Source: Planctomycetota bacterium (GTDB taxonomy: Bacteria; Planctomycetota; Phycisphaerae; Phycisphaerales; Phycisphaeraceae). From it: 64,000 bases of DNA. Positions 17,568 through 62,418 of the stretch are shown here, one piece after another; positions within the stretch are counted from its first letter, which is position 1; every line of letters begins with the position of its first letter. Location of the stretch: NCBI GenBank assembly GCA_024279865.1, contig JAJRRC010000109.1, forward strand, positions 17,513 through 81,512. The letters run 5' to 3'. Under the pieces are notes generated by a model that did no database searches, had not been told where the DNA came from, and saw nothing but the letters and a program-made list of their open reading frames with translations. Made by a program: the position numbers and the translations under genes.

Positions 17568-17972
17568 ATGAATCAATCCGCCAAAAATCATCATCCAATT
17601 AATATAAAAAACTGTTTTATCATTCTTCTGGCCTTGACGGCAGGGGAAGTGGCCTTGTTTGAAATCTGGTCACAAACAGCGTTTGTCCCCAAATATGTCA
17701 TGGTTCTAATGCTCCTGGTCTTGACACTTCCCAAGGCTGCAGTTGTCATGATCTACTTTATGCACTTAAAATTTGAGAAACAATTTGTGATCGCTTTAGC
17801 GATCTTCCCGATGATCCTGGTTTTCATTTGTGTCTTGCCAACCCTTTGGGATGCAGTTCGTTTGCATAACGTTGGAAAATCACAAAACCATGTCATCGGC
17901 CTCAAAGATTGGACTCCACCCAATGGACACAGCCACGCTCGAAAAACAGACGACCCCACAGTCAGCCACTGA
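17568..17972 (+). CDS. ctaF: cytochrome c oxidase subunit IV (prokaryotic caa3/aa3 type)
   Basis: Small three-TM protein immediately after ctaE. It has a hydrophilic C-terminal tail. Confidence 0.6.
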   Translation: MNQSAKNHHPINIKNCFIILLALTAGEVALFEIWSQTAFVPKYVMVLMLLVLTLPKAAVVMIYFMHLKFEKQFVIALAIFPMILVFICVLPTLWDAVRLHNVGKSQNHVIGLKDWTPPNGHSHARKTDDPTVSH

Positions 17973-18965: not shown

Positions 18966-19010
18966 TAGACGCGCACGTAGTATGCGTGCGGCTACTTTTC
19001 AAACGGCCCA
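18966..19010 (+). repeat. REP/terminator-like hairpin element, copy R1
   Basis: agacgcgcacg-tagtatg-cgtgcggctacttttcaaacgg lies 30 nt after the ABC ATPase stop. Confidence 0.7.
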
Positions 19011-19210: not shown

Positions 19211-19380
19211 CCTCAACCAAACCCCCAAGCCTGTTTCAACAGGTGCATCCCCAAGGCCACCTTGTTACCATAAAGACAATCAAGAACGTGAAGGTCCGCA
19301 TCATTTGAGCCCTCCGGTGATGTCGTTCCTTGTTGTACTTCATGTTCTTCCTCTTGATTTTCCTTCCACCCTTGGGGCTC

Positions 19381-21375
19381 ATGCCCATGACCACCACGCC
19401 GGTACAATCTGATTTGGCTCTTTGGACGACGCTTCGCACGCGTCGTCGTCATGTGGAGCAGTTGCGTGGGATTGACGCGATGGCGGGTCGTTGGATCACG
19501 CGGACGAAGCATTCGCGTAAGGGGATGTCTTTTCTCAATGAGCAGGCGGATCATGTTTTGGCTTTGGGGGATCAATGGAAAGATTACACTGAAGATCAGC
19601 TTGATGAACGGGTGATGGATATTCGTCAGATTTTTGCTCGCCGCGACTATACCGACGCGCATGTGGTGGTGGCGATGGCGGCCATTCGGGAAGTGGCTCG
19701 CCGAGAGCTTGGGGAATATCCGTACAAGGTTCAGGTCATGGGGGCGATGGGTTTGTTTCATGGCCAAATTGTGGAAATGGTCACCGGTGAGGGTAAGACG
19801 TTGACAGCCGCCTTGGGCGCGAGTTTGCTGGCGTGGCTACGACGGCCGATCCATGTGGTGACGGTGAATGATTATTTGGCTCAGCGTGATGCGGACACCC
19901 GCAAGCCGATTTATCGCCGTTGTGGGTTGGCAGCTCAGGGGATTGTCAGTGATACCCCGCCTGAGGAACGTCAATCGTTGTATCGTTTGCCGATTGTGTA
20001 TTTGACACAGAAGGAATTGGTCGCTGATTGGCTCAAGGATCAACTGAAGCTGGGTCGAATTGTGGACCCGGTTTCTGCACGTTGGCGTTCGTATGCCATG
20101 GCGGGCGGTTCAAAGGCTTCGCAGGGCGTGATGATCCCGGGCTTGTTTGTGGCCTTGGTGGATGAACTCGATGCGGTGTTGATTGACGAAGCGGTCACGC
20201 CGTTGATTATCGCTCAGGCCCGGGGTGCTGACAGTCAAGGCGAGTTGTACCTGCGTGCCCGTGAGTTAGCGATGCAGCTTGTCCCCAATGAGCACTTTGT
20301 GGTGGACTTGCGGAAGCGACGTGTGAAGCTGACTGAAGAAGGTCGCTATCAGGCAGAAGATTTGCTCGGCGAGCAGGATGATATTTTCAAACGTTCTCCC
20401 CGCCGACGTGAGGAGATGTTGGAGCAGGCGTTGGTGGCGGAGCATTGTTATTTGATTGGCGACCAGTATCAGGTAGTCGAAGACGAAATTGTGATTGTCG
20501 ATGAATACACGGGTCGCTTCATGGAAGACCGTCAGTGGCAACACGGGCTGCATCAGGCAGTCGAAGCCAAGCATGCTTTGGAAGTCACCGAAGACCGTGA
20601 CACACTGGCGAGCCTGAGTTTTCAGCGGTTTTTCAAGCAATACCCTCATCTTTGTGGCATGACAGGCACTGCCGCCGAGGCCATTGCCGAATTGGAAGCG
20701 ACTTATAGTTTGCCTGTCCGGGTGATTCCGACCAATCGGCCGATGCAACGAAAAATGTTACCTGATTTGATTTTCGCGCGTTCTGAAGATCGCTGGACTG
20801 CTGTCGCCCAAGAAGTGCGACAAATGCACCAGCAAGGACGGCCCGTCCTCATCGGAACCCGGTCCATTGAGTCCTCTGAACAACTCAGTGAACTACTCAC
20901 CAAGCAAGGACTCGAACATCAAATCCTCAATGCAGTCCACCATGAAGAAGAAGCTCCCATCGTCGCCAAGGCTGGGCAACTTGGCGCGATTACCGTCGCT
21001 ACGAATATGGCTGGACGCGGAACCGACATCAAGCTCGGCAAAGGTGTCACCGATATCGGTGGACTCCATGTGATCCTCACCGAACGCCACACCGCTCGAC
21101 GGGTCGACCGCCAACTCTACGGCCGCTCCGGTCGTCAGGGAGACCCAGGCTCCGCTCGCAATATTGTCAGCCTTGAAGATGAACTACTCATCAAATTTTC
21201 AGGCAAACTTTCAGCAGCCCTGCGAACGAGGTTTGCCGCCCGCCACACCCCGCTGCCAGCATGGACCAAAAGAGTCTTTGATCGGGCACAACGCAAAGCC
21301 CAAAACCAAGCCTTCAAAAGTCGAGCCCAAGTCCTTCGCCAAGATGAAGAACTCGACCGCACCTTGCCACGATAA
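19381..21375 (+). CDS. SecA-family ATPase paralogue, C-terminally truncated (~665 aa)
   Basis: MVTGEGKTLTAAL, VVTVNDYLAQRDA, LVDELDAVLIDEAVTPLII, TNMAGRGTDIKLG and RQLYGRSGRQGDPG are present. The protein ends after the first HSD helix. The start is uncertain (19330 TTG, 19381 or 19387 ATG). Confidence 0.8.
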   Translation: MPMTTTPVQSDLALWTTLRTRRRHVEQLRGIDAMAGRWITRTKHSRKGMSFLNEQADHVLALGDQWKDYTEDQLDERVMDIRQIFARRDYTDAHVVVAMAAIREVARRELGEYPYKVQVMGAMGLFHGQIVEMVTGEGKTLTAALGASLLAWLRRPIHVVTVNDYLAQRDADTRKPIYRRCGLAAQGIVSDTPPEERQSLYRLPIVYLTQKELVADWLKDQLKLGRIVDPVSARWRSYAMAGGSKASQGVMIPGLFVALVDELDAVLIDEAVTPLIIAQARGADSQGELYLRARELAMQLVPNEHFVVDLRKRRVKLTEEGRYQAEDLLGEQDDIFKRSPRRREEMLEQALVAEHCYLIGDQYQVVEDEIVIVDEYTGRFMEDRQWQHGLHQAVEAKHALEVTEDRDTLASLSFQRFFKQYPHLCGMTGTAAEAIAELEATYSLPVRVIPTNRPMQRKMLPDLIFARSEDRWTAVAQEVRQMHQQGRPVLIGTRSIESSEQLSELLTKQGLEHQILNAVHHEEEAPIVAKAGQLGAITVATNMAGRGTDIKLGKGVTDIGGLHVILTERHTARRVDRQLYGRSGRQGDPGSARNIVSLEDELLIKFSGKLSAALRTRFAARHTPLPAWTKRVFDRAQRKAQNQAFKSRAQVLRQDEELDRTLPR

Positions 21376-22950: not shown

Positions 22951-22977
22951 GGACGCGCACGCTGTAAGCGTGCGGCT
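22951..22977 (+). repeat. REP/terminator-like hairpin element, copy R3
   Basis: ggacgcgcacgc-tgtaa-gcgtgcggct is the exact reverse complement of 27972-27998. Confidence 0.85.
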
Positions 22978-27901: not shown

Positions 27902-27932
27902 AAAATAGCTGCACACTCGAGTGTGCAGCATC
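27902..27932 (-). repeat. REP-like hairpin, copy R4 (compensated stem variant)
   Basis: aaaatagctgcacac-tcga-gtgtgcagc shares its flank and stem architecture with R5, but with paired substitutions in the stem. Confidence 0.55.
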
Positions 27933-27960
27933 AATCATTTCCATTTATGTTCGAATGAAT

Positions 27961-28000
27961 CGTTTAAAAATAGCCGCACGCTTACAGCGTGCGCGTCCGG
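27961..28000 (-). repeat. REP/terminator-like hairpin element, copy R5
   Basis: The minus strand reads ccggacgcgcacgc-tgtaa-gcgtgcggctatttttaaacg. It lies downstream of the minus-strand kinase operon. Confidence 0.85.
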
Positions 28001-28198: not shown

Positions 28199-29113
28199 TC
28201 ACGCAGCCACACTCGCCTGACGGGGCATGATCGATTCAATCAATTCGCAACTCGCTCCCAAGTCCCCCGACTCCAAACGATAGCAATCAGCATGGCGACA
28301 AATTTCAGAAAGAATATTGATCGCACGGCGACCAAAAGATTGGCGGTTAAATGACATACGGGCCAATTCAATCGCGGCTTCACTGCGAGCCATCGGCGTG
28401 AGCAACGGACGGCTCGCTGCAACATAACGTGGGAAAATAATGCGGCGAATCGTGCAAGGCTGATCCATTACCTCACGACTACGCACATTGGGACGAACAT
28501 AAGCAACCCGCCCTTTGAACGCTTTGGCGTAGTGTTGGCGTTGCCACAAGGGCAAACCCATTTTCTTTACAACGGGGAAAGACCCTTCTTTAACACACAA
28601 CGCTTTGGGAAACGCACGCAGCTGATGGGTCAACGGATCAATCAATGCAAACTCATCGCAAAGATATCGCCAATCTCGAGACATCAATCCACACGCCAAG
28701 GTCGATTTGCCAGAGCCTGATCCGCCCGCAAGAATCAATCCCGCGCCGTTTTTCTCAAGCGTTGCAGCATGCAATTGTAAAAAAGACTCGCCTCGAGCAA
28801 TGATCCGCCAATTCACCGCCCATTCCATGTAAGGCAAAATTTCGTTGGATCGCAAACAAGTGAACAACTCTTTGCCATCACCATGCACGGCAAAACGCTT
28901 GCGCCAAGGTAACTTGGATTTCCAAGGCAACGCATCCACACGGATCGTGGTTTGGGGATCAATCTCGTCCGCTGCCAAATCAGGCATGCGAAAATCCTGA
29001 TACAAATGACTTAAGTCTTCCGTGGCCTGAGGCATGATGCTTCGGACGGCCACACGCATCGGGCCAATCTGGAAATGCGTATAAAAATCAGGTTCAGAGG
29101 CAGATTGCTTCAT
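28199..29113 (-). CDS. HPr kinase-related (HprK-like) P-loop serine kinase
   Basis: LHAATLEKNGAGLILAGGSGSGKSTLACGLMSRDWRYLCDEFALID fits the HprK-related kinase architecture. Its start is coupled to the PqqD-like gene by an ATGA overlap. Confidence 0.75.
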   Translation of the reverse strand: MKQSASEPDFYTHFQIGPMRVAVRSIMPQATEDLSHLYQDFRMPDLAADEIDPQTTIRVDALPWKSKLPWRKRFAVHGDGKELFTCLRSNEILPYMEWAVNWRIIARGESFLQLHAATLEKNGAGLILAGGSGSGKSTLACGLMSRDWRYLCDEFALIDPLTHQLRAFPKALCVKEGSFPVVKKMGLPLWQRQHYAKAFKGRVAYVRPNVRSREVMDQPCTIRRIIFPRYVAASRPLLTPMARSEAAIELARMSFNRQSFGRRAINILSEICRHADCYRLESGDLGASCELIESIMPRQASVAA

Positions 29114-29433
29114 GGATTCAAAAGCCCATTGTTCGCTAGCATTGCCACCATTTGCTGAACATGGTCCGAAGCAGTGGCCCGGTCAATTTCATACTCATTG
29201 CAAACATCATCGACAAGATCAGAATACGTTCGGGTGGGCTGACATCCTTCCCAAACAATCAAGGCAGTACGATTTAATCGAAATGTTCCGCCCGTGGCTG
29301 AATCAAAAAGCAACGCTTCGTCATCTAAAATTTGTAAACTCACATCACTACGCTGGGATGGACAAGGCAACAAAGCCTCCTCCAATACCCACGGCGAGGT
29401 CAACGGATAAGAATCGGTAGATAACTGAGGCAT
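29110..29433 (-). CDS. PqqD-family (RRE-type) peptide-binding protein
   Basis: LQILDDEALLFDSATGGTFRLNRTALIVWEGC...YSDLVDDVCNEYEID...VQQMVAMLANNGLL is a typical PqqD fold signature. The start is set at the internal ATG (MPQLSTDS) so that it does not overlap the peptide gene. Confidence 0.75.
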   Translation of the reverse strand: MPQLSTDSYPLTSPWVLEEALLPCPSQRSDVSLQILDDEALLFDSATGGTFRLNRTALIVWEGCQPTRTYSDLVDDVCNEYEIDRATASDHVQQMVAMLANNGLLNP

Positions 29434-29482
29434 GGGGGCTTCTCTGTAAACATCAATCAAACGAAGACAAGCGGCAAATAAT

Positions 29483-29740
29483 TTAGGACGGAGCCCCCGA
29501 CACACTGGCAAAAGCAGTCTTGTTGGCCGTTAATGCAATGACCACAGGAGCGACATAAGCAGCTTTCTTGGCCATGCTACGCACAAACTGTCGCCGCGTT
29601 GCCGCGTTGTCCACCGGAAATTTCTCCCCCGCAAGACCCCCCGGCTCCCCCGGTTCCCCCGGTTCCCCCGAATCATCGGTTGGCCGTGGCTTGTGTGGTT
29701 TACGTGAAGGCGTGTTGGATTGATTCATAGCATTTTCCAT
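29483..29740 (-). CDS. small peptide (85 aa) with a twin-arginine-like motif; candidate substrate of the cassette
   Basis: The peptide contains TRRQFVR, the hydrophobic stretch AAYVAPVVIALTA and an AFA site, and then only SVSGAPS before the stop. It sits between the nucleotidyltransferase and PqqD genes on the same strand. Confidence 0.45.
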   Translation of the reverse strand: MENAMNQSNTPSRKPHKPRPTDDSGEPGEPGEPGGLAGEKFPVDNAATRRQFVRSMAKKAAYVAPVVIALTANKTAFASVSGAPS

Positions 29741-29794
29741 CCCATTGGATCTATCGACATTTGGACCAAGGGTCCTCAGTAAAACTTATCGGTT

Positions 29795-31165
29795 TTAGGC
29801 AGCTTTTTGTGAGATCAAAGTTGTTTGGCCCTGCTTTTTGAGTCCGGTAACGTCCGTTGAGCGTTCAAGATTCACGCAAATAGCCTCTTCAGAGCAGATT
29901 CGCTTGATGGCAATGAGCTGATAGCCGTCAAATCGGGCGTTGGGCCTGACGGAGGTGCTGACAAATCGCATCTTGCCTCGCATGGTAAATCGCTCGGTTT
30001 GGCCGTCGTTGTATTGGCGGGTGACCGAGAAGCGGCTGGAGCCGTCCCATGCTCGCACTGCATATTTGCCGATGGTTTGACCTGCGTGAATGGTGCGACG
30101 GGCAGTCAGACAGAGGCTCCCGTCTTCCTGACGCAGGACTTCGGTTTTGGATAAAAAGGCCCATAAAGGCTTGAAATATTTGGTGATTGGGCGGGTCAGG
30201 CGACACACATGGGCCGTCGGCAACCAACCCCAATGTTCATGGGCGTACCATTCACGCATGTGCTTCTGGTCTGGCACGGTTGCCGCGTAGAGATAGCCCA
30301 GTACAAAGCCGATGCCAGGCGTGGTTAACACATTGGCTAAAACATGGGCCAACGGATGCGCGTTGTCTCGCGGTGCTTGGCGAAGGCAAAGTCGGTCCCG
30401 CCAATTAACAGGGATTGTTTTGAGAGCCTCTCGCACTTGGGGAGGAATCAGTTGCTTGCCTTGGGCTGCTGCATCGAGTCCGCTCAGCACGGGCAAACTC
30501 AATCGCCACTGGCGGGCTAGTTGTAAGAACAAATCCCAGTTCATTTCACGGGAAAATTGCTTGGTCCAGCTTTGAATATCGTCACGCCATTTTTGACTGC
30601 TGTTGCCATGCACCGCCAGGTGGGCGGTGAGATGGATTAACATTCGCGCGGGTTCTGGAACCCAGACAAACGCATCATTCATAAAGACTTTTCGAGCATC
30701 GGTCCACAGTGCTTCGGTAGGCATGAATTGGGCATACCGCAAAGGACGCAGCGGCCGCACATGCACATCCATCACCACAGGCATCACATCGCCCACGGTG
30801 TATTCTGCTTCGTAATAAAACCGAGGAAAGAAATCTTCCCGCATCAAAATTTGGCTGCGATACCCACCCATCGATTCAATGATTTCAAACGCACGATCCA
30901 TGTCCGCTGGGCGAATCAGTAAATCTAGATCGCTCATCGAACGGGCCGCGGGATCGTCATAGGTGGTCAAGAGCAACGCTCCACCTTTGAGGAGCATCAG
31001 GTCAATCCCCGCCTCGTTGAATTGCAGAGCAAGCCGTCGCAGAAAGTGCATCATTCGCACATTGCGGGTCGCAACGCCAAGTCCCGCTCGGTCACTGGCC
31101 AAGGGCTTAGTAAGATGCGTAAGCGGTGTCGGCTCTTGAAGCATGTCAGATTCACAATGAGACAA
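29795..31165 (-). CDS. PF14907-type nucleotidyltransferase with a C-terminal degenerate SET-like domain
   Basis: The N-terminal half contains LLKGGALLLTTYDDPAARSMSDLDLLIRPADMDRAFEIIESMGGY (the uncharacterised nucleotidyltransferase family). The last ~100 aa (LTARRTIHAGQTIGKY ... RFVSTSVRPNARFDGYQLIAIKRICSEEAI) resemble a SET domain that lacks NHSC. An alternative start lies at 31144. Confidence 0.65.
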   Translation of the reverse strand: MSHCESDMLQEPTPLTHLTKPLASDRAGLGVATRNVRMMHFLRRLALQFNEAGIDLMLLKGGALLLTTYDDPAARSMSDLDLLIRPADMDRAFEIIESMGGYRSQILMREDFFPRFYYEAEYTVGDVMPVVMDVHVRPLRPLRYAQFMPTEALWTDARKVFMNDAFVWVPEPARMLIHLTAHLAVHGNSSQKWRDDIQSWTKQFSREMNWDLFLQLARQWRLSLPVLSGLDAAAQGKQLIPPQVREALKTIPVNWRDRLCLRQAPRDNAHPLAHVLANVLTTPGIGFVLGYLYAATVPDQKHMREWYAHEHWGWLPTAHVCRLTRPITKYFKPLWAFLSKTEVLRQEDGSLCLTARRTIHAGQTIGKYAVRAWDGSSRFSVTRQYNDGQTERFTMRGKMRFVSTSVRPNARFDGYQLIAIKRICSEEAICVNLERSTDVTGLKKQGQTTLISQKAA

Positions 31166-31419
31166 TCGAATAACTCCTGGCGGTTTTAGAGTTCCTAGTT
31201 AAACGATTTATCGGTAATGGACCCCCGGATTCGCCATACTTATAGCCAAAGCCCGATAAGGAAACGGGTTTTGGGGCATCTAAATAGGTATTCGAATTAT
31301 GATCGTACTGGTGGCTTGCCCTAAATTTTTGAGCCAATTGTGAGGAGATTCCGTCTATAACCAGTCACCATTGATTATTTCCATTTTCCCCCGGTTTTTT
31401 ACGTCTTTGGCATCTTGTT

Positions 31420-31484
31420 TTTTTTAAGCATCGCGTTCAAACGACTTCATACCGCGGGAATTTTAATGCCCGATGGGTCTAAAA
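31420..31484 (+). repeat. conserved ~55-nt 5' intergenic element, copy c
   Basis: ttttttttaagcatcgcgttcaaacgacttcataccgcgggaattttaatgcccgatgggtcta. Confidence 0.7.
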
Positions 31485-31549
31485 GAATATCTAGAGACTG
31501 CTAAAGGGAGCAATCGCAACAGATTACCCGAAATAGCAATTTATTCCTC

Positions 31550-31578
31550 TTGAAATCTGACCCTCTTCCGGGATAATT
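31550..31578 (+). promoter_or_regulatory. candidate sigma70-type promoter of the DegT operon
   Basis: TTGAAA-N17-ATAATT lies about 65 nt upstream of the ATG at 31642. An AGGAG RBS sits at 31629-31633. Confidence 0.3.
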
Positions 31579-31641
31579 CTTACAGTTGGCCTACCAGTGT
31601 GCAGGCCCTTAGTATAGAACCATCTCAAGGAGTCAATCAAT

Positions 31642-32940
31642 ATGTCTTTAACATCCACAGAATCAACTCTGGCAATTCTTGGCGGCTCACCAGCGGCCCC
31701 TCAGGATATCGTGAAACCCTGGCCTCCGATTGACGATACAGATCGCCAGATGGTGCTTGATTCACTCAACGGAACCAATCACGCCTTCGGCCCCAACTGC
31801 CAAGCCTTTTCAAAAGAAATGGCTGAGTGGAACGGTAACAAGCATGCCATCTTCACCAACAGTGGGACGGCAGCCTTGCACATGGGACTCGTCGGTTGTG
31901 GCGTGGGTGCGGGCGATCACGTGATCGTCACCGGCTACTCTTGGTCTTCAAGTGCAACCTGCATTATCCATCACAATGCCATCCCCATTTTTGTCGATAT
32001 TGACTTCGATACCATCAACATCGACGTAGACAAAATTGAAGCAGCCATCACCCCCAAAACCAAAGCCATCGTCGCGGTCCACTTGCATGGCCTGGCGATC
32101 AATATGGAAAAATTGATGGAAATAGCAAACAAACACAATCTCAAAGTGATTGAAGATGCTTGCCAAAGTCATGGTGCTGAATACAAAGGTAAAAAAGTTG
32201 GCACGATGGGTCACTGCGGTGCGTTGAGCTTTAACCAAAACAAAAGTCTTTGTGCGGGTGAAGGCGGGATGTTCCTGACCAATGATGAAGAAATTCTCGC
32301 AGGCGCTTCGAGCCTTTGGTCCTTCGGCGAAACTCGCACGCCTTCAGAAGACCGCGATTTCCATGCGTATGCATTGGGTTGGATGTACCGCGCGAACGAT
32401 CTGACGGCCGCCTTCGGCCGAGCACAGCTCAAAAAGCTCACTGGCTACATTGAAACCGAACGTTCAAATGCAGATGCGTTGCGTGCCGTACTTGAAGGTA
32501 CACATGGCCTGATCATGCCGACGGAGCCTGAAAACCATTTACATACTTATTACAACTTTAGTATTCGTATTGATATGGACGCGATTGGCTGGACGGGTGA
32601 GCCCACGCGTATGCGAGACGCATTGCTTAAAGCAATGGCCGCTGAAGGTGCTCACCCTGTTGTTTGGCAGCGATTTATTTTGCCTAGCATGACGGTGTTT
32701 CAAGCGAAGAACGCTTATGGCAAGGGCAGTCCTTGGGCTGAGCATGATGCGTTGGATGTGGATTATAACCCTGCGAATTTTCCTGTGTCCCAGCATCACT
32801 CTGATACGCACTTTGCGATCATTATGCCGTTGCGTGCCCCCAATGGTCCTGAAGTTGCTCAGGTGATGGGCCAAGGCATCCGCAAGGTTTTTGAGAATAT
32901 TGAGAAAATTGATCCCGACCAGATTCTCGACGAAAAATAA
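31642..32940 (+). CDS. DegT/DnrJ/EryC1/StrS-family PLP aminotransferase
   Basis: 432 aa with the typical family layout (FTNSGTAALHMGL ... SFNQNKSLCAGEGG containing the PLP Lys). Confidence 0.85.
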   Translation: MSLTSTESTLAILGGSPAAPQDIVKPWPPIDDTDRQMVLDSLNGTNHAFGPNCQAFSKEMAEWNGNKHAIFTNSGTAALHMGLVGCGVGAGDHVIVTGYSWSSSATCIIHHNAIPIFVDIDFDTINIDVDKIEAAITPKTKAIVAVHLHGLAINMEKLMEIANKHNLKVIEDACQSHGAEYKGKKVGTMGHCGALSFNQNKSLCAGEGGMFLTNDEEILAGASSLWSFGETRTPSEDRDFHAYALGWMYRANDLTAAFGRAQLKKLTGYIETERSNADALRAVLEGTHGLIMPTEPENHLHTYYNFSIRIDMDAIGWTGEPTRMRDALLKAMAAEGAHPVVWQRFILPSMTVFQAKNAYGKGSPWAEHDALDVDYNPANFPVSQHHSDTHFAIIMPLRAPNGPEVAQVMGQGIRKVFENIEKIDPDQILDEK

Positions 32941-32974
32941 GTTCCAACAGAAAAAAATAAAAGAAGGAAGTGCC

Positions 32975-34285
32975 ATGATTATTCACACGGGTGCGGCTTC
33001 GGTCGTCATTACCCCGCCTTTGGGAACTCAGATTCAAGGGGCGGGTGTTCCCGATCAGCCCGCCAAAGTCATTCGTGATGAGCTTGAAGCCAATGCGGTT
33101 TATTTTTGCAGCGACGATGAGGCTGTTCTGTTGGTCAGTTGTGATGTAGGGATGTTGCCGACGGATTTTGTGATTGCTACGCGAGCGGCGATAGGCGAGG
33201 CGATGGGGCTGGCTGAGTCGAACGTGATCATCAGTGCCACGCACACCCATTCGGCTCCTTCGGTATCAAGGACCAATTGGGTCAAGCCGGTGGCGGAGGA
33301 TTTCCTCAAAAATCTCCGCGATCAGTTGATGGCCGTCGCTTGTCAGGCAAAGCAGTCTGCGGTGGTGTCGAAAATCGGATGGGGGTTGGGGCACACTCAA
33401 CTTGGCTACAACCGAAGGTGCTGTTGGTCTGACGGCTCACATAGCATGTACAACCCCACGGGTCGGACTGATTTTACTGGATTTGAAGGGCCAGAAGACT
33501 CTGCTCATGTTGCGTTTTTTGCCTGTGATATGGAGGGAAAACTTCTGGCGGTGATTCATCAGAATACGGCTCATCCGACTTGTTTTTATGCAGGAGATTG
33601 CTTCTCCAGTGATTTTCCAGGCGCTGCGCGAAGCCACCTCAGAGACTCTTTTGGCGATATTCCCGTGTTGTTTTTTAATGGCGCTCTAGGCGACATTTGC
33701 AGGCAGGAAACCATGGGGATAGGTCAATCTGAAACCTCCGAACAGGTTCTCAAACGCAATGGGCATCTTCTCGCAGGTGAAACACTGCGGTTATTTCACC
33801 AGGCCCCATTGCACGATGATGTGGCCTTTGGTCATGTGTATGAAGACCTGACGGTGGACGTGCGATTGCCTGATCCCAAACGGCTCGCTTGGGCGAGAGA
33901 GGTGGTCGCTTTGGCTCAGTCGGGCAAAGCGAGCAAGCCTGAAAATTATATTGCAGCATGGGGCATCGCGTTACTGCAAGATGAGTTTGGCGAGAATCCG
34001 GTTGACACGCTGCGTTTGCATGTGGTTCGTCTCGGTGATGTGGCTTTGGTGACTCAGCCGTGCGAGCTTTATTGTCAGTTTGGCTTGGATATCAAGCGTC
34101 GCAGTCCCGCTCCGATTACCAGTGTTTCATCCCTGACCGATGGCTACGGAGGCTATTGCCCGACGATGTATGGCATTTTGGGCGGTGGGTATTCCGGTGA
34201 GTCTTACCAATGGTGTCGCCTCGCTCCCGAAGCGGGCTACCTGCTTGTGGATGTGGCTTCTCGTATGTTACGCCAACTTTGGTAA
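32975..34285 (+). CDS. short neutral/alkaline ceramidase-like amidohydrolase, paralogue 1
   Basis: ITPPLGTQIQGAG ... LLVSCDVGML ... ISATHTHSAPS matches the ceramidase N-terminal domain pattern. At about 437 aa it lacks the ceramidase C-terminal domain. Confidence 0.7.
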   Translation: MIIHTGAASVVITPPLGTQIQGAGVPDQPAKVIRDELEANAVYFCSDDEAVLLVSCDVGMLPTDFVIATRAAIGEAMGLAESNVIISATHTHSAPSVSRTNWVKPVAEDFLKNLRDQLMAVACQAKQSAVVSKIGWGLGHTQLGYNRRCCWSDGSHSMYNPTGRTDFTGFEGPEDSAHVAFFACDMEGKLLAVIHQNTAHPTCFYAGDCFSSDFPGAARSHLRDSFGDIPVLFFNGALGDICRQETMGIGQSETSEQVLKRNGHLLAGETLRLFHQAPLHDDVAFGHVYEDLTVDVRLPDPKRLAWAREVVALAQSGKASKPENYIAAWGIALLQDEFGENPVDTLRLHVVRLGDVALVTQPCELYCQFGLDIKRRSPAPITSVSSLTDGYGGYCPTMYGILGGGYSGESYQWCRLAPEAGYLLVDVASRMLRQLW

Positions 34286-34335: not shown

Positions 34336-35163
34336 ATGAAACTATCCATGATGTCCTACACGATGAGCCGCCAGCCCAAGTTTTTTGATTTGGCCCAGAT
34401 GTTTGATCTGACCGCAGAGCTGAAACTTGATGGCATTGACATGGTGACCCTGCACGGCAGCACTGCCAAAGAATTGCGGAAAATGGCCGACGATCGCGCC
34501 ATTCCCGTGGTCTGTCACACTTTTATAGCGGACCTGAACTTTCCCACGACTGCCGAGCGAAGTAAAACTGTGGATGACGCTCGCCGTGGGATTGATGCGG
34601 CAGTGGAACTGGGCGCTCCGACGGTCATGATCCCCACCCCCGCCAAAGCAGGCGTGGACCGTGATGTCTCTCGCAAAAACTGGATCGCCGGTTTACAGGA
34701 GGTGATCCCTTACGCCAATGAGGCAGACATCATCTTAACGGTGGAAAATTTTCCCGGTGCGGGTAGCCCCTTCGTCATCGCCACCGATCTGCTCCAAGCG
34801 GTGCGAGAAGTGCCAGGCATGAAAATAACCTATGACAACGGCAACGCCTTCTCCGGCGAAGAACCAATCCAGTCCTTCAAGGATGTGGCGGAGCATACCG
34901 TGCATGTCCATTTCAAGGATTGGGATATCGTCGAAGAAGGCCAGGGCATGGCCATGCTTAACGGCACAACCATGGCCTCCGCCTTGATCGGCGAAGGCGA
35001 TATAGATACCAAAGGTTGTCTCAAAGCTCTGACTGATGCCAACTATGATTTCTGCATCAACCTTGAATACGAAGGCAACAAATACAATCCCACCGAAGGC
35101 GTTCGCAAAGCAACCGAATATCTTCGAAACGCCTATGCAGAATTAACCGCGACATCGGTCTGA
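34336..35163 (+). CDS. sugar phosphate isomerase/epimerase (xylose isomerase-like TIM barrel), copy 1
   Basis: 275 aa. It is a tandem paralogue of the next gene. Confidence 0.75.
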   Translation: MKLSMMSYTMSRQPKFFDLAQMFDLTAELKLDGIDMVTLHGSTAKELRKMADDRAIPVVCHTFIADLNFPTTAERSKTVDDARRGIDAAVELGAPTVMIPTPAKAGVDRDVSRKNWIAGLQEVIPYANEADIILTVENFPGAGSPFVIATDLLQAVREVPGMKITYDNGNAFSGEEPIQSFKDVAEHTVHVHFKDWDIVEEGQGMAMLNGTTMASALIGEGDIDTKGCLKALTDANYDFCINLEYEGNKYNPTEGVRKATEYLRNAYAELTATSV

Positions 35164-35193: not shown

Positions 35194-36030
35194 ATGAAAT
35201 TGTCCATGATGTCGTTTACGATGAGTTTGCAGCCGGAGTTTTTTGATCTGACGCAGATGTTTGACCTAACGTCCGAACTGAAACTCGACGGCATTGATCT
35301 GGTCACGCTTCACGAAACCCCCGCAAGCGAATTGCGGAAAATGGCGGATGATCGTGGCATTCCCATTGTGTGCCACACTTTTCGGGCGGACTTAAATTTT
35401 CCCACTGCCGCGGAACGACAGCCCGCTGTGGACCTTGCTCGTAAAAGTCTTGACGCAGCCGTCACGCTGGGCGCTCCGACGGTGATGATTCCCACGCTTC
35501 CCAAAGCAGGTGTGGATCGTGATCTATCTCGCAGAAACTGGATTGCCGGTTTACAGGAACTGATTCCCTATGCCAATGACGTGGGAGTCGCTTTAACCGT
35601 GGAAAATTTCCCCGGCGAGGGGAGCCCCTTCGTCATCGCCACTGATTTGCTCCAAGCGGTACGAGAAGTGCCAAGCATGAAAATAACCTATGACAACGGC
35701 AACGCCTTCTCTGGCGAAGAGCCAGCCCAGTCATTTAAAGATGTCGCTGAGCATACGGTGCATGCCCATTTCAAAGATTGGGATATCGTCGAAGAAGGCC
35801 AAGGCACAAAAATGCTCGACGGTCGCACCATGGCCCCCGCTCTGATCGGTGAGGGAGCCATTGATACCAAAGCCTGTCTCAAGGCTCTGGCTGATGCGGG
35901 TTATGATCGCTATATCAACATTGAATACTGTGGCAGAAAATACAATCCCACCGAAGGCGTTCGCAAAGCAACCGAATATCTACGTCGGATAAATGAAGAA
36001 CTGACAACCGCGACGCCTGTGGTGAAATAA
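35194..36030 (+). CDS. sugar phosphate isomerase/epimerase (xylose isomerase-like TIM barrel), copy 2
   Basis: 278 aa and about 70% identical to copy 1. The two copies share exact nucleotide runs of 36 nt or more. Confidence 0.75.
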   Translation: MKLSMMSFTMSLQPEFFDLTQMFDLTSELKLDGIDLVTLHETPASELRKMADDRGIPIVCHTFRADLNFPTAAERQPAVDLARKSLDAAVTLGAPTVMIPTLPKAGVDRDLSRRNWIAGLQELIPYANDVGVALTVENFPGEGSPFVIATDLLQAVREVPSMKITYDNGNAFSGEEPAQSFKDVAEHTVHAHFKDWDIVEEGQGTKMLDGRTMAPALIGEGAIDTKACLKALADAGYDRYINIEYCGRKYNPTEGVRKATEYLRRINEELTTATPVVK

Positions 36031-36114: not shown

Positions 36115-37437
36115 ATGATTACCGTAGGAAGCGCTTCTGGAATTATTACAAATGAATTAGGTACCGATATCCAGGGCGCAGGATGCGGCGGGAAAGCTGC
36201 CTACATTCGAGACGAATTAGAAGCTAGCGTGATGTATATCAAGCAGGGAGATACCGAAGTCATGTTCGTTAGTTGTGACTTGGGAGGATTGGAATCTGAC
36301 ATCACCGTTGCCACACGAAATGCCATGGCTGAAGCCTCTGGGATCAATCCACGGTCCATCATTATTGGTGGTACACACACAGGAGGCCCTTCGGTCCTTC
36401 CCTCTAACCGTCAAAAACCGGTCGATCTAATATACCTTGAAAAACTAAAAAACATACTCACGGACTTGGCGAAAAAAAGTGTGCAATCCATGGTCCCCGC
36501 CACGTTAAGTGTGTCTCAAGGTCATGCGAAAATTGGTTACAACCGAAGGACCTGCTGGAGTAATACAAGCCATCAAATGTACGGCAAGGCACAGGGAAAA
36601 ATAACGTTCACCGGCAACGAAGGGCCCGAAGACCCCCAGCAATTTGTCTTGTATGCGGTGGATGAAAACAATCAGATTTTAGCAGTGTTGCATCAAAATA
36701 CATCCCACCCATGTACTTTTTTTGGTGCTGATTTTTACTCAGCAGACTATCCCGGACTCGCACGAACTTACCTTCGGGAAGCACTGGGCGATATCCCCGT
36801 TCTCTTCTTTAACGGTGCTCTTGGCGATATCGGGCAAAGTCTAACAAATGAAAACTCATTTGGGGGAACTGACAAAGAAATGATGATCAGGCGATGCGCA
36901 CTGTCGTTGGCGGGAGAAACACTGCGTTTGATTCATGAAAATCCACCCACAGCAAACAATCGCCTTCAACACATCTGTCAGGATTTAGAGGTGGCTGTCC
37001 GATTGCCAACACCACAAAAACTGGCATGGGCAGAAGAAACCATCGCCAAAATAGATGCGGGAGAATCGCTTCCTCCTTTTGATCAAATTTTTTCCCATGG
37101 TGCCAGCTTACTTCAAAAGCGTTTTGGTGATCACCCAATGGACTCTCTTCCAATTCATGCGATTCAAATTGGACCTGCAGCAATCATTACTCAACCCACA
37201 GAACTTTTTTGTTATTTCGGCCTTGAAATAAAACGTCGTAGTCCATTTGCCATTACCAGTGTCTTCAGTCTCTGTGATGGGTATGCGGGATATTGTCCCA
37301 CCTACGATGCAATTGTTGGAGGGGGCTATTCTGGAGAGCCGATCTATTGGACTCGTTTTACGCCTGAAACAGGCTATCAAATGGTTGATGAATCATCTCG
37401 CTTGTTGTTCCAGATGCAACAAGAAAACGAGGGATGA
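36115..37437 (+). CDS. short ceramidase-like amidohydrolase, paralogue 2
   Basis: Colinear with paralogue 1 (IGGTHTGGPS, VLFFNGALGDIG, GYAGYCPTYDAIVGGGYSGE). Confidence 0.7.
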   Translation: MITVGSASGIITNELGTDIQGAGCGGKAAYIRDELEASVMYIKQGDTEVMFVSCDLGGLESDITVATRNAMAEASGINPRSIIIGGTHTGGPSVLPSNRQKPVDLIYLEKLKNILTDLAKKSVQSMVPATLSVSQGHAKIGYNRRTCWSNTSHQMYGKAQGKITFTGNEGPEDPQQFVLYAVDENNQILAVLHQNTSHPCTFFGADFYSADYPGLARTYLREALGDIPVLFFNGALGDIGQSLTNENSFGGTDKEMMIRRCALSLAGETLRLIHENPPTANNRLQHICQDLEVAVRLPTPQKLAWAEETIAKIDAGESLPPFDQIFSHGASLLQKRFGDHPMDSLPIHAIQIGPAAIITQPTELFCYFGLEIKRRSPFAITSVFSLCDGYAGYCPTYDAIVGGGYSGEPIYWTRFTPETGYQMVDESSRLLFQMQQENEG

Positions 37438-37490
37438 AAACGTAGAGCCTGCTGGTTATTTTTTAATGAACAAAGGATCAAAAATAAACC

Positions 37491-38900
37491 ATGAAGCAAC
37501 CTAATATTTTATTTGTGATGACCGACCAACAACGAGGTGACTGTCTCGGCGTGGAAAACCACCCAGTTCTGATGACGCCTGTGATGGATGATATGGCTGC
37601 TCGTGGCGTGCGGTTTACCAAGTTTTATTCTGCTTGTCCTAGCTGTATTGCCACCCGACGCGCGATCCTCTCAGGCATGTCACCTCAACGCAACGGCATG
37701 GTTGGGTACAACGGCAACGTTGAATGGCATCCGCCTACCACCCTGCCTGGCATCCTTGCTGATCACGGCTATCAGACCGGCCTTGTGGGGCGTTCGATGC
37801 ACCAATATCCGCCTGAAAAACATTTTGGCTTTGGAGACATGACCAGTAATCAATACGCGACCATCCCAGGAGATGACTACAACAGTTGGCTCGAAAAAAC
37901 AGGTCCCCAAGGCAATGGTGGTTGGTTCGGCGGCGGGGTGATGCACAATGACCACACCGCCCGGCCATGGCCTCTAGAAGAACACCTGCACATGACCAAT
38001 TGGACCATGACGCGATCCCTGCAATGGCTCCAAGAACGAGATCGAAGCAAGCCGTTCTTTCTCAACGTTAGTTTTATTGCACCCCATCCGCCACTTCAGC
38101 CACCGGAATTTTATTTTGAACGTTATATCCGCACCGGTGTACCTGAGCGGTTTCTTGGTGATTGGGCTTCTCCGCCGGAGTTTGGCAGTGCGATAGACGT
38201 TGTGTCGGCAAGCTGTATGGATCTCAAAGGTGAAGCCTTGCTCAGCGCTCGGGCAGCTTACTATGGGTTGATCAATCATGTGGACAATCAGTTGCGACGA
38301 TTGTTTAACCCTGTTTTGGGCATGGATCAAGAGACACGTAAAAATACCATTGTGATCTTCACCAGTGATCATGGCGAAATGCTTGGCGATCATTATCGCT
38401 GGCGTAAAAGTTTAGCCTATGAAGCCTCTGCGCGTGTGCCGTTTATCATGTATGCTCCTGAGCGGTTCGGCATTAAGCGGACGTCCACCATTGATGCGGT
38501 GGCGACCCATGCGGACATTATGCCGACGTTGTTGGATATGGTGGGCATTGATATTCCGGATCATTTGGATGGCCAAAGTTTGATGCCGTTGATTCATGGC
38601 GAACAAACGCAATGTCGGGAGTATTTACATATTGAACACTCACCAGAGCAACAGGCGTTGACTGATGGTCGTGAAAAATTCATTTGGATGCCTGCCGACG
38701 GCCGTGAGCAATTTTTTGATTTAACCATCGACCCCAATGAATGCAAGAATTTGGTGGCTGATTCAAATTATGCCGATCGCGTGACGTTGTGGCGTGAACG
38801 AATGATCAATGCATTAGCAGATCGACCAGAAGGTTTTACCGATGGAAAGTCTTTGATTGCCGGGCGGCCGTATGGTTCAATGATCCCGGGGCGTTCTTAA
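37491..38900 (+). CDS. sulfatase (C-x-A-x-R variant)
   Basis: ILFVMTDQQRGD, CIATRRAILSG and SDHGEMLGDH. Confidence 0.85.
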   Translation: MKQPNILFVMTDQQRGDCLGVENHPVLMTPVMDDMAARGVRFTKFYSACPSCIATRRAILSGMSPQRNGMVGYNGNVEWHPPTTLPGILADHGYQTGLVGRSMHQYPPEKHFGFGDMTSNQYATIPGDDYNSWLEKTGPQGNGGWFGGGVMHNDHTARPWPLEEHLHMTNWTMTRSLQWLQERDRSKPFFLNVSFIAPHPPLQPPEFYFERYIRTGVPERFLGDWASPPEFGSAIDVVSASCMDLKGEALLSARAAYYGLINHVDNQLRRLFNPVLGMDQETRKNTIVIFTSDHGEMLGDHYRWRKSLAYEASARVPFIMYAPERFGIKRTSTIDAVATHADIMPTLLDMVGIDIPDHLDGQSLMPLIHGEQTQCREYLHIEHSPEQQALTDGREKFIWMPADGREQFFDLTIDPNECKNLVADSNYADRVTLWRERMINALADRPEGFTDGKSLIAGRPYGSMIPGRS

Positions 38901-38940
38901 TTTTTTCACCATCATCTTTTTACAAAGAAAGTTTTTTCAA

Positions 38941-40392
38941 ATGGCACCGAATATTTTATGGATTTGCACTGACCGACAACGCTGGGACACCCTTGGCTGT
39001 ATGGGCAATCCCCACGTCAAGACGCCGAACCTGGATCGCTTGGCAGCCAACGGCATTCTTTTTCGTAATGCCTTTTCTCAATGCCCGGTGTGCAGTCCCA
39101 GCCGAGCCTCTTTTTTAACTGGACGCTATCCCAGCACCACCAGGCTCAACCGAAACGGGCAAACGATTCCCTCCAGCGAACGGCTCATTTCCCGTTTACT
39201 CGCGGATAATGATTATATCTGTGGCCATGCAGGGAAAATGCATCTGTCCGCCAGTTCACCCAATAGTGTTCAATGGTCCGAAAAACGAATTGATGATGGA
39301 TACAGTGTGTTTGACTGGTCGATGCATCCCCCGGATGTGCCGATTTGTGCCTATACCGCCTGGCTGATGGAGCATGATATTGAGTTTAAGCGAACGCCTG
39401 TGGGTGATAGCAAGCATATTACTTTTGGGATGCCCAAAGAAACCAACAACACGACATGGATTGCGCAGCGTGCGATTAATTTTATGAAGTGCAATGAGCC
39501 ATTGGATCGCCCGTGGTTTTTTACGTGTGACATTGAAGACCCGCATGCGCCTTATGATCCGCCGCAAGAATTTCTTCAGCCCTATCTTGATAAGCTTGAT
39601 GAGATTGAGTTGCCTCATTACACCGATGGCGAACTAGAGAACAAACCTCCATTCCAGATGACTGATCGGCACGGGGTTTACGGCAGCGGTGGTGGACATT
39701 TTGCAGCAGCGGATATGACCGACCAAGAACACCGTCTTATTCGTGCAGCCTATTGGGCGATGATTGACCATGTGGACTATCAAGTTGGACGCATGATCGA
39801 AGCACTCGAACAAAGTGGCCAATTGGACAACACATTGATCCTTTTTATGTCCGACCACGGCGACATGCTGGGCGATCATGGCATGTACATGCAAGGCCCC
39901 TATTTTTACGATGAAATGGTCCATGTCCCACTGATTATGCACTACCCGGACAAAATTAAAGCGGGGCTCGATAGTTCTGCCATGGTTGAGCTGACCGATA
40001 TCTCGCCGACCCTGATGCAAGCGGCTGGCCTTGATGTTTACGAGGGAATGCAGGGGAAAAGTTTTTGGCCATTAATGACGGGCGACGCAGATCTCCAAAC
40101 ACACCGTGATTCGGTCTACCATGAATACCATCAGGCCATCCCTCCTGTGGTATGCCATCAAAAAACAGGGGGCGCGTATATCACCGGCGTTCGCAATGAA
40201 AATTATGCACTGAGTTGTGTTCATAACTTTGATGATGGCGAGTTGTACGATCTGAAAAAAGATCCGGGCATGATCCAAAACCTTTGGCATGATCCAACAA
40301 GAGCTACCGAACGGGCTCAGATGTTACAACTATTATGTCAACGCATGGCAGGGACCATTGATCCCTTGCCGCCGACCACAGATTCCTATTGA
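38941..40392 (+). CDS. sulfatase
   Basis: ILWICTDRQRWD, CSPSRASFLTGRYP and SDHGDMLGDHG. Confidence 0.9.
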   Translation: MAPNILWICTDRQRWDTLGCMGNPHVKTPNLDRLAANGILFRNAFSQCPVCSPSRASFLTGRYPSTTRLNRNGQTIPSSERLISRLLADNDYICGHAGKMHLSASSPNSVQWSEKRIDDGYSVFDWSMHPPDVPICAYTAWLMEHDIEFKRTPVGDSKHITFGMPKETNNTTWIAQRAINFMKCNEPLDRPWFFTCDIEDPHAPYDPPQEFLQPYLDKLDEIELPHYTDGELENKPPFQMTDRHGVYGSGGGHFAAADMTDQEHRLIRAAYWAMIDHVDYQVGRMIEALEQSGQLDNTLILFMSDHGDMLGDHGMYMQGPYFYDEMVHVPLIMHYPDKIKAGLDSSAMVELTDISPTLMQAAGLDVYEGMQGKSFWPLMTGDADLQTHRDSVYHEYHQAIPPVVCHQKTGGAYITGVRNENYALSCVHNFDDGELYDLKKDPGMIQNLWHDPTRATERAQMLQLLCQRMAGTIDPLPPTTDSY

Positions 40393-40509
40393 TCTGATGC
40401 GTGGCCCGCGTATGTTAAAGTCATGATGCGGTATTAAAAACAATCGAACCGCAAGCCGCTTTAAGACGATTTGTTTCTCAAACTTTTCCCCCTTAGAAAG
40501 AATTAGACC

Positions 40510-57065: not shown

Positions 57066-57104
57066 CCGGACGCGCAAGCTGTAAGCTTGCGTCTATTTTT
57101 AAAC
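57066..57104 (+). repeat. REP/terminator-like hairpin element, copy R7
   Basis: ccggacgcgcaagc-tgtaa-gcttgcgtctatttttaaac lies 76 nt after the skp-like stop. Confidence 0.8.
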
Positions 57105-61003: not shown

Positions 61004-61006
61004 CTT

Positions 61007-62374: not shown

Positions 62375-62418
62375 GAAAAAGTAATATCACCAAAAGACAA
62401 AGACACAGGGAAACGACG

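Follow-up and report, generated by a model that had tools for sequence, protein, structure and literature searches.

A planctomycete kinase, recognition-element, and nucleotidyltransferase cassette with its own leader-bearing peptide, a probable relative of the linear polyphosphorylated peptide pathway

In a 64,000-nucleotide stretch of contig JAJRRC010000109.1 from a Planctomycetota bacterium (the window, in what follows), four co-directional genes lie close together on the minus strand between positions 28199 and 31165. These encode, in order, a PF14907-type nucleotidyltransferase with a degenerate SET domain, a small peptide, a PqqD-like protein, and an HprK-like kinase. The cassette is probably a self-contained, lasso-independent pathway that modifies a peptide in the way of a peptide made by the ribosome and altered after translation (RiPP), and it is probably of the same kind as the linear polyphosphorylated peptide (LPP) pathway of Bacillota, which was described by Popov et al. 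(Nat Commun, May 2026; PMC13381572). The features of the cassette, with the basis of each in brackets, are the following:

29795 to 31165, minus strand: gene of the PF14907 nucleotidyltransferase with the degenerate SET domain, 456 amino acids (aa) from a TTG start or 449 aa from an ATG at 31144
30464 to 31078, minus strand: catalytic domain of the nucleotidyltransferase, residues 30-234, with LKGG and DLD (extent of the Pfam match)
29870 to 30112, minus strand: SET-fold domain without the catalytic motifs, residues ~352-432 (PF00856 score, alignment, and structure search)
29483 to 29740, minus strand: gene of the putative precursor peptide, 85 aa (81 aa if the second Met is the start; position, coding signature, and fusions)
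29507 to 29599, minus strand: conserved leader module T48-A78 (alignment A2 and motif spacing)
29486 to 29506, minus strand: predicted core S79-V-S81-G-A-P-S85 (variable region past the AxA motif)
29110 to 29433, minus strand: discrete RiPP recognition element (RRE) of the PqqD family, lasso-B1-like, 107 aa from an ATG (PF05402)
28199 to 29113, minus strand: HprK-related kinase A, 304 aa (TIGR04352)
28700 to 28726, minus strand: Walker A P-loop of the kinase, G130-GSGSGKS-T138 (invariant residues in alignment A1)

The transferase and peptide genes are separated by 54 nt and the peptide and PqqD genes by 49 nt, and the stop codon of the PqqD gene overlaps the start codon of the kinase gene in an ATGA. 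The list of open reading frames (ORFs) and the sequence itself confirm this arrangement, which an earlier reading made from the sequence alone (the sequence-only reading) had described with the same coordinates, gaps, and overlap. The enzyme assignments of that reading were borne out by profile searches: the transferase matches PF14907 with an E value of 2e-33; the PqqD protein matches PF05402 with an E value of 2e-14 (53.8 bits against a cut-off of 23.4); and the kinase matches TIGR04352 (HprK_rel_A) over residues 13-294 of its 304 with 201.9 bits against the equivalog cut-off of 200. Two features had been missed, namely a conserved YxxPxV leader inside a signal-peptide-like segment of the peptide and the degenerate SET domain of the transferase. 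In GCA_024275395.1, a public metagenome-assembled genome that includes the window, the annotation of this contig likewise has all four genes, the peptide being given as 81 aa, and the ORF list shows neither frameshifts nor internal stops in any of them.

The closest homologues of the kinase all come from Phycisphaerae or Planctomycetota. Its precomputed Pfam family is PF27840, named ScmC, and its only relatives by sequence in the PDB are HprK structures. In the kinase alignment (A1), G133, G135, K136, T138, H115, D153, and E154 are invariant. Similarly, K53, G54, D72, D74, D126, and H128 are invariant among 43 transferase homologues (alignment A4, numbering of protein cluster P0266; P and L are our handles for protein clusters and loci), and the family retains hG[GS], DxD, and the third Asp. 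To judge from these residues, both the kinase and the transferase look active. Weak matches of the transferase to the MdcG domain (E 0.009-0.02) were not used.

The AlphaFold model of the window transferase (mean predicted local distance difference test score, pLDDT, of 87.6) has two domains. A fold search related the N-terminal domain to MenT1, TglT, ANT(2'')-Ia, and LnuA, which are polymerase-beta-type nucleotidyltransferases, and the C-terminal domain to vSET (3kma, TM score 0.69, root-mean-square deviation 2.7 Å), MLL1, and PRDM. On PF00856, the C-terminal domain reaches only 15.2 bits against a cut-off of 22.4, and in place of the GxGVFA, NHSCxPN, ExTxxYG, and CxC motifs of intact SET fusions the window protein has GSLCLTA, STSVRPN, and ICVNLER. 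About half of the 120 closest transferase homologues carry a Pfam-significant SET domain. Those encoded beside cysteine-rich cores score 25-40 bits on PF00856 and keep all four motifs, whereas the window transferase and its nearest relatives, all of them beside short Ser/Gly cores, have lost every one. The SET domain of the window protein is thus predicted to be catalytically dead.

Neither Pfam nor NCBIfam holds a family for the window peptide or for its proteobacterial counterparts (see below). A word-indexed search with the window peptide found only the peptide itself, and its family was therefore recovered by position and by iterated profile searches of six-frame ORFs in 80 loci, one genome per species, fetched with the kinase alignment. 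The trio of kinase, PqqD protein, and nucleotidyltransferase occurs in nearly all of 88 loci, and peptide homologues are present in the Planctomycetota loci of the kinase-fetched set. In all, at least 15 Planctomycetota loci besides that of the window have the small ORF in this slot. A metagenome scan with a six-sequence alignment of the peptide gave only four loci. The order transferase, ORF of 62-97 aa, PqqD, and kinase recurs in independent genomes, and since the flanking genes differ from one genome to another, the four genes appear to act as a portable unit. When homologues are compared over the leader module, most nucleotide differences are in third codon positions (two of the comparisons gave 8/5/21 and 3/1/14 for positions 1/2/3), and 10-14 of its 32 codons have changed synonymously. 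This bias indicates that the peptide ORF, as a real gene, is translated and under purifying selection.

When 84 non-redundant loci were searched with a leader profile, 72 had a leader-bearing ORF no more than 1.5 kb from the trio, 23 of these loci having played no part in building the profile, and in the flanks of about 20 kb there was no match away from the trio. The view that the small ORF is conserved thus stands, on its slot in other genomes, on the third-position substitutions, and on the fusions described next. As to the related question, whether a short ORF ending in Ser always accompanies the trio, a leader-bearing ORF is there in these 72 loci, and many related cores end in other residues.

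The strongest link of the peptide to the enzymes is its fusion to them. In 14 protein clusters, the peptide is fused in frame to the kinase (11 clusters: P0086, P0090, P0097, P0104, P0113, P0116, P0122, P0123, P0126, which is L010 8331-9569, P0127, and P0210) or to the transferase with or without its SET domain (three clusters: P0278, P0323, and P0357). The layout is the same throughout: the enzyme comes first, and a linker joins it to the RR/YxxP leader and then to a cysteine-rich core, which in the kinase fusions mostly starts with xxSNPSG-C. A further tie that binds the three enzymes into one pathway is provided by fusions between the enzymes themselves in metagenomes, where the kinase is joined to the nucleotidyltransferase in proteins of 687-743 aa (P0136, P0158, P0221, and P0229) and, in a single case, the nucleotidyltransferase to the PqqD protein (P0341).

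The peptides of the family have little in common over their N-terminal 20-50 residues. This region is followed by a leader with the consensus [ST]-R-R-x-F-[LVI], nine residues, Y-x-x-P-x-V, a hydrophobic run, and a small-x-small (AxA) motif. In the window peptide these elements are TRRQF, nine residues, Y62-V-A-P65-V-V67, and a hydrophobic run to A76-F-A78. The leader alignment (A2) shows no exception at R49, R50, F52, and P65 and hardly any at Y62, V67, and A76. The spacing from RR to Y is 13 in the 14 distinct sequences in which the regular expression fell on the leader's own RR; in three others it caught an upstream RR (spacings of 57, 86, and 89), and three relatives are without the motif. 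The [Y/W]xxPx[L/V/I/A/F/Y] motif is the one to which the RREs of lasso B1 proteins and LppB bind (PMC13381572), and in lasso leaders it occupies positions -17 to -12 (PMC10368454). For a cut after A78 (A78|S79), Y62, P65, and V67 of the window peptide stand at -17, -14, and -12, as in lasso leaders.

The RRE itself points in the same direction, its nearest solved structures being TbiB1 (5v1u, E 5e-7) and TfuB1 (6jx3). N54 of the window RRE aligns with a conserved Asn, which is found in TfuB1 only (TbiB1 has Asp), and D90 aligns with an Asp conserved in both B1 proteins. Among 13 RREs paired with YxxP leaders, 12 have Asn at the position of N54 and 11 have Asp or Glu at that of D90. Where the partner leader has no Tyr, as is the case for the proteobacterial RREs, the residues at these two positions vary freely. 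We infer from these correspondences that YxxPxV is the element of the leader recognised by the PqqD protein.

What follows the leader is highly variable. The window core, SVSGAPS, resembles those of its closest relatives (SGSGVS, SGGSGVS, SGASGVS, SGSAPS, and ESGASGASGG). Many other cores have about 30 residues with six cysteines in a knottin-like C-x6-C-x5-CC-x3/4-C-x4/6-C pattern; matches of such a core to conotoxin and spider-toxin models were sub-threshold (16 bits against 27), so that knottin-like describes the cysteine pattern only. A constant leader joined to a hypervariable core is the usual logic of the precursors of ribosomal natural products.

Cassettes with cysteine-rich cores usually include a gene for a VKOR-DsbA fusion protein, which the short-core variant of the window is without. 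Such a gene lies inside the cassette in eight loci (L011 8244-9626, L013 509-1843, L014 8543-9646, L016 2927-4426, L017 296-1537, L018 7931-9496, L096 5257-6687, and L097 5283-6650), and wherever a precursor was identified in these loci, its core was of the six-cysteine, knottin-like kind; none was found in L014 and L016. The presence of VKOR-DsbA beside cysteine-rich cores points to oxidative folding outside the cytoplasm and thus to export. In two further loci (L090 885-1154 and L091 1192-1461), a cysteine-rich member of the precursor family was seen beside a histidine kinase and a LuxR-type response regulator.

In Proteobacteria (L022-L080, for example L031 8965-9636), genes for proteins of about 220 aa (range 110-290 aa), sometimes in two copies, adjoin the trio. 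The Tat-like N-terminus of these proteins has RRxLLK, then a hydrophobic run and [ST]RPV[LW]A, and C-[ST]-I-SG-xx-SGN-x-S often comes next. The classical HPr-rel-A cassette probably has them as its substrates. The neighbouring genes hemA, prfA, prmC, grxD, ntrBC, and glnA of these loci were judged to reflect synteny of the lineage and were not taken as parts of the system.

Another important aspect of the cassette is the machinery that it lacks. A Pfam scan of all ORFs of about 180 aa or more in the 64-kb window found no Asn_synthase-like lasso cyclase, and the annotated neighbourhoods show none beside the cassette. No transglutaminase-like leader peptidase (B/B2) and no S24/S26 signal peptidase, SipW-like ones included, were found among the scanned ORFs or in the annotated neighbourhoods, and no MsbA-type (ABC_membrane) exporter was found among the scanned ORFs or near the cassette in the annotated neighbourhoods. 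ABC genes are limited in the window to those of an ABC_tran ATPase (17830-18936) and of an importer of oligopeptides (58764-63960). The AsnB PP-loop motif SGGxDS is absent from the window. Moreover, SVSGAPS has seven residues and neither Asp nor Glu, and the lasso rule is a start with Gly, Ala, Ser, or Cys followed by Asp or Glu at position 7-9; without an acidic residue, the macrolactam cannot form. A lasso pathway was rejected on the cyclase and peptidase missing among the scanned ORFs and on the non-lasso core. The sequence-only reading had already noted that the window encodes neither cyclase nor leader peptidase and that the adjacent peptide ends in Ser without a lasso-compatible core, and these points held. 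As to its question whether a cyclase is always absent from such neighbourhoods, the SGGxDS motif is likewise absent from 85 of the 88 loci, and the other three have an AsnB-like gene within 10 kb.

The description of the cassette as a lasso-independent modification system was right in outline, but its designation as uncharacterised is partly outdated by the LPP pathway, some of which has been characterised in Bacillota. This pathway is free of a cyclase; its precursors have 35-200 aa, a YxxPxV leader, and variable C-termini; and its authors considered it restricted to Bacillota (PMC13381572). LppK polyphosphorylates Ser3 of the core in an RRE-dependent manner, and a signal-peptidase-I-type homologue removes the leader in a cleavage that depends on the RRE (PMC13381572). 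The window cassette and the LPP clusters alike have a discrete RRE of the lasso type, an HprK-like kinase, and a nucleoside triphosphate transferase without a macrolactam cyclase. In both, a conserved leader with YxxPxV precedes a highly variable C-terminal part; the AxA-type cleavage context of the window has its counterpart in the signal-peptidase-I-type chemistry that cuts the LPP leader; Ser stands at position 3 of the core (AQSN in LppA, xxSN in the fused planctomycete cores, SVS in the predicted core of the window); and polysaccharide or sugar genes are often adjacent.

The differences from LPP are also considerable. LPP clusters include a SipW-like peptidase and an MsbA-like exporter, neither of which is in the cassette or the window. 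The full LPP consensus is YxxPxVLxHQxIxFETxxS, and the window peptide has YxxPxV without the LxHQxIxFETxxS remainder; instead, [ST]RRxF stands upstream and a hydrophobic run to AxA downstream. The transferase here is joined to a SET domain, dead in the window and intact in relatives, and there are two kinds of core, one of 6-10 Ser/Gly residues and one that is knottin-like with six cysteines and VKOR-DsbA. Finally, the cassettes are found in Planctomycetota, with related forms in Proteobacteria, as opposed to Bacillota. The cassette is most likely a relative of the LPP pathway in another phylum and with a new layout.

Several other systems share parts of this arrangement. The window cassette belongs to the computational family HPr-rel-A (TIGR04352/TIGR04353): its kinase passes the cut-off, and the kinase, PqqD, and nucleotidyltransferase families are adjacent. 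However, the TIGRFAMs/NCBIfam library has no substrate model for this family, and the order in most Proteobacteria is (protein), PqqD, kinase, transferase, as against transferase, peptide, PqqD, kinase in the window. The phospho-lasso systems (paeninodin, pseudomycoidin, and Bsf) are similar in their B1-type RRE, in a kinase that acts on the linear precursor, in a nucleotidyltransferase that decorates the phosphate, and in a leader with YxxPxL at -17 to -12; they differ in having what the window cassette is without, namely a cyclase, a B2 cysteine peptidase, an ABC exporter, and a core capable of forming a lasso. In paeninodin, the HprK-like kinase targets the C-terminal Ser of the lasso precursor, and in pseudomycoidin, the PF14907-type nucleotidyltransferase puts a hexose on the phospho-Ser (PMC8498205). 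In the Bsf lasso system, BsfK phosphorylates core Ser3 of BsfA and requires the B1 protein (PMC10368454).

An HprK-like P-loop protein is likewise paired with a PqqD-like protein in the SynChlorMet cassettes (ScmC/ScmD, TIGR04249/TIGR04248) and with HprK-related kinase B, but the scores here, 38 bits for a cut-off of 125 and 35 bits for one of 200, are much too low, and those cassettes contain radical SAM enzymes, of which there are none here. RiPP precursors of the borosin type are fused to their modifying enzyme, and bufferins are RiPPs with secretion-signal leaders. In relatives of the window cassette, leader and core are attached at the C-terminal end of kinase or transferase, and the leader is secretion-signal-like; the window cassette is unfused, and its enzymology is unrelated to that of either class. 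Two papers on the genome mining of RREs (PMC7470986 and PMC12710340) do not mention the kinase and transferase context, and a search of the literature on PF14907, TIGR04352, PF27840, and twin arginines in connection with RiPPs found nothing relevant.

From these comparisons, a pathway may be proposed. The PqqD-type RRE would bind Y62-x-x-P65-x-V67 in the 81- or 85-aa product, to judge from the shared motif and from the RRE's homology to lasso B1 proteins, and would present the peptide to the HprK-like P-loop kinase, which would phosphorylate a serine of SVSGAPS. It is likely that kinase and transferase act, guided by the RRE, on the adjacent peptide as their substrate, and somewhat more likely than not, by analogy with the known kinases, that serine phosphorylation is the primary modification. 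The site would most plausibly be Ser81, at core position 3, with Ser79 and the C-terminal Ser85 as alternatives; Ser81 is favoured because of the two Ser3 precedents, LppK and BsfK, and Ser85 because of the paeninodin precedent, and by these analogies the choice of Ser81 is only a tentative one. The sequence-only reading had made the C-terminal Ser the key target. This is not upheld by the family, since G, A, N, C, D, L, or P is the last residue of related cores, a terminal Ser being common among the short ones, and since the two precedents are at Ser3. The PF14907 transferase would then add a nucleotidyl or sugar(-phosphate) group there, by analogy with pseudomycoidin, the dead SET domain probably being a docking module only. 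Lastly, general machinery would export the peptide, and a type I signal peptidase would cut after A78 to give a modified heptapeptide. Since the cassette encodes neither peptidase nor exporter, general export and signal peptidase offer the most economical model. The group added by the transferase, the export, and the cleavage after A78 are speculative parts of this scheme.

An important question is whether the leader can serve as a secretion signal. It resembles one in its twin arginine, its basic residues, its 13-residue hydrophobic stretch, and AFA. The pattern of the twin-arginine translocation (Tat) type, [ST]RRxFLK, uncharged hydrophobic run, and AxA, is represented in the window peptide by TRRQFVR, AAYVAPVVIALTA, and AFA, with 47 residues before the motif. 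The proteobacterial relatives are sub-threshold on the Tat models (13 bits against 16.7 and 11 against 22.7). Export followed by signal-peptidase cleavage is a real possibility, which we hold tentatively. A more specific and rather doubtful version gives the leader a dual function: a functional secretion signal would hold YxxPxV within its hydrophobic core, the PqqD protein would mask this signal until the serine or serines past the cleavage site had been modified, and the general translocon and signal peptidase I would replace a dedicated protease and exporter.

Several observations weigh against the pathway and the export step proposed above. Between RRxF and the hydrophobic run there is a six-residue basic spacer, which is unusual for Tat signals, and the window peptide does not match the curated Tat models TIGR01409 and PF10518 at E values up to 1. 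In the fusion proteins, the leader is internal and follows a cytoplasmic domain of 300 aa, so a conventional N-terminal signal role is impossible there. A core of seven residues is very small for a bioactive RiPP. The PqqD protein scores 33.3 bits on TIGR04353, 1.7 below the cut-off of 35. The cysteine-rich member in L090 and L091 has no trio on its contig of 3-5 kb and may be an orphan copy of the precursor. As for LPP, the likeness is one of families and motifs, and searches of solved structures with the kinase and transferase sequences brought up neither LppK nor LppN. The LPP transferase was inactive in a heterologous host (PMC13381572).

Other readings of the cassette were considered. One is that the system modifies or proofreads a secreted protein rather than making a natural product: a small protein would be targeted to Tat or Sec, the PqqD protein would act as a signal-peptide chaperone that masks the hydrophobic core while kinase and transferase modify residues beside the cleavage site, and the product would be a modified exported protein or peptide, such as a glycan-bearing envelope component. 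The leader with its RR, basic residues, hydrophobic run, and AxA is consistent with this, as are the VKOR-DsbA that accompanies cysteine-rich cores, the lack of a dedicated exporter or peptidase, the sugar-nucleotide genes beside the cassette in the window (DegT), L003, and L092, and the proteobacterial linked proteins of 110-290 aa, in which a canonical-looking RRxLLK is followed by C-x-x-SG-xx-SGN-x-S, although their matches to Tat models are sub-threshold. However, only seven residues of the window peptide lie past the predicted cleavage site, and the failure of the curated Tat models and the internal leader of the fusions count against this reading too. It largely overlaps the RiPP-like pathway, differing chiefly in what counts as the product, and we consider it improbable. 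Another explanation, that the trio acts on a remote or non-peptide substrate (an envelope polysaccharide or another protein) and that the small ORF is an unrelated secreted peptide, could draw on the transferase fold, which is like that of ANT(2'')-Ia, LnuA, and MenT, enzymes that nucleotidylate small molecules or RNA, and on the sugar-nucleotide genes that adjoin some loci. The in-frame fusion of the peptide to kinase or transferase in 14 clusters, the leader-profile matches found solely beside the trio, and the presence in the peptide of the motif cognate to the RRE, which is a peptide-binding domain, make this scarcely probable.

The window cassette might also be the decaying remnant of a larger one (VKOR-DsbA, transferase with active SET, cysteine-rich precursor, PqqD, and kinase) and have no useful product. 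The loss of all SET catalytic motifs, the minimal core, and the absence of a VKOR-DsbA gene would be explained in this way. Yet at least six distinct genomes, with transferase identities of 51-61%, share the reduced layout of short Ser/Gly core and degenerate SET, purifying selection acts on the peptide, the catalytic residues of kinase and transferase are intact, and frameshifts and internal stops are absent, so that decay is very improbable. A last alternative is that the trio serves to tailor a lasso peptide, the genes for the cyclase and the B2 peptidase of the pathway being elsewhere in the genome. The RRE is indeed closest to lasso B1 proteins, and the tailoring of lasso peptides by HprK-like kinases and by PF14907-type transferases is known. 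Nevertheless, Asn-synthase-like and transglutaminase-like genes are absent over 64 kb, an AsnB-like gene within 10 kb is the exception among the 88 loci, the seven-residue core has neither Asp nor Glu, and related cores are peptides of the disulfide type. This alternative is hardly credible.

The cassette is bordered on its two sides by the following features:

27908 to 27993, minus strand: two terminator-like hairpins 3' of the kinase gene, at 27993-27975 and 27929-27908 (consensus scan and inverted repeats)
31166 to 31641, no strand assigned: intergenic region of 476 nt facing a divergent gene of the DegT aminotransferase family (gene layout)

The sequence-only reading had seen a terminator cluster like repetitive extragenic palindromic (REP) elements on the one side and a divergent promoter region on the other. 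The two hairpins are there, and the one at 27975-27993 is a copy of a four-copy palindromic element, which gives some support to the term REP-like. The GC-rich palindrome, GGACGCGCACGCTGTAAGCGTGCGGCTATTTTTAAAC, occurs just past gene ends at 27975-27993, 22956-22974, 18972-18990, and 57073-57091, where 0.02 matches would be expected by chance; one copy has compensatory changes in its stem (CGCAAGC...GCTTGCG). It looks like a REP-like or a shared intrinsic-terminator element. On the other side, the divergent arrangement across 476 nt was confirmed, but promoter-like matches in this region upstream of the transferase are no commoner than in shuffled sequence. The region presumably contains the cassette promoter.

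Just past the divergent DegT aminotransferase gene (31642-32940) there are two sets of paralogues: tandem xylose-isomerase-like TIM-barrel proteins (AP_endonuc_2) are encoded at 34336-35163 and 35194-36030, and two distant ceramidase-like paralogues at 32891-34285 and 46535-47872. A link of the paralogues beyond the DegT gene to sugar metabolism is possible. In L003 and L092, too, the cassette has sugar-nucleotide genes beside it, for epimerases and a GT2 glycosyltransferase; as a sign of function, such neighbours are only suggestive.

Elsewhere in the window, four consecutive genes for proteins of 440-483 aa lie at 36115-41952; two encode sulfatases (37491-38900 and 38941-40392), and the outer two (36115-37437 and 40510-41952) have no Pfam match. 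A multihaem cytochrome c of 1750 aa with a CarboxypepD_reg domain (4342-9594) is encoded beside a cytochrome oxidase cluster, whose COX1 subunit (11810-14716) is unusually long at 968 aa, which suggests a fusion. At 19330-21375, 7 kb from the cassette, there is a gene for a short SecA-like ATPase of 681 aa, probably a second SecA paralogue.

The kinase, PqqD, and nucleotidyltransferase trio has long been a named computational family without a function, and a profile search found about 1,170 clusters at 50% identity with E values up to 1e-30. The window and its relatives probably supply its missing substrate in the form of leader-bearing peptides and proteins that are outside the curated libraries. 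Compared with LPP, they also bring new features: a leader that resembles a secretion signal, fusions of the transferase to SET, knottin-like cores with VKOR-DsbA, and fusions of enzyme and precursor. If the leader did have the dual function outlined above, a phospho-(nucleotidyl or glycosyl) heptapeptide would be released here and a modified knottin-like or larger protein in relatives, the orphan HPr-rel-A system of Planctomycetota and Proteobacteria would gain both a substrate class and a mechanism, and LPP-type chemistry would reach past Bacillota. With its four genes and its core of seven residues, the window version is the smallest form of the system, which makes it a convenient construct for learning the role of the PF14907 transferase.

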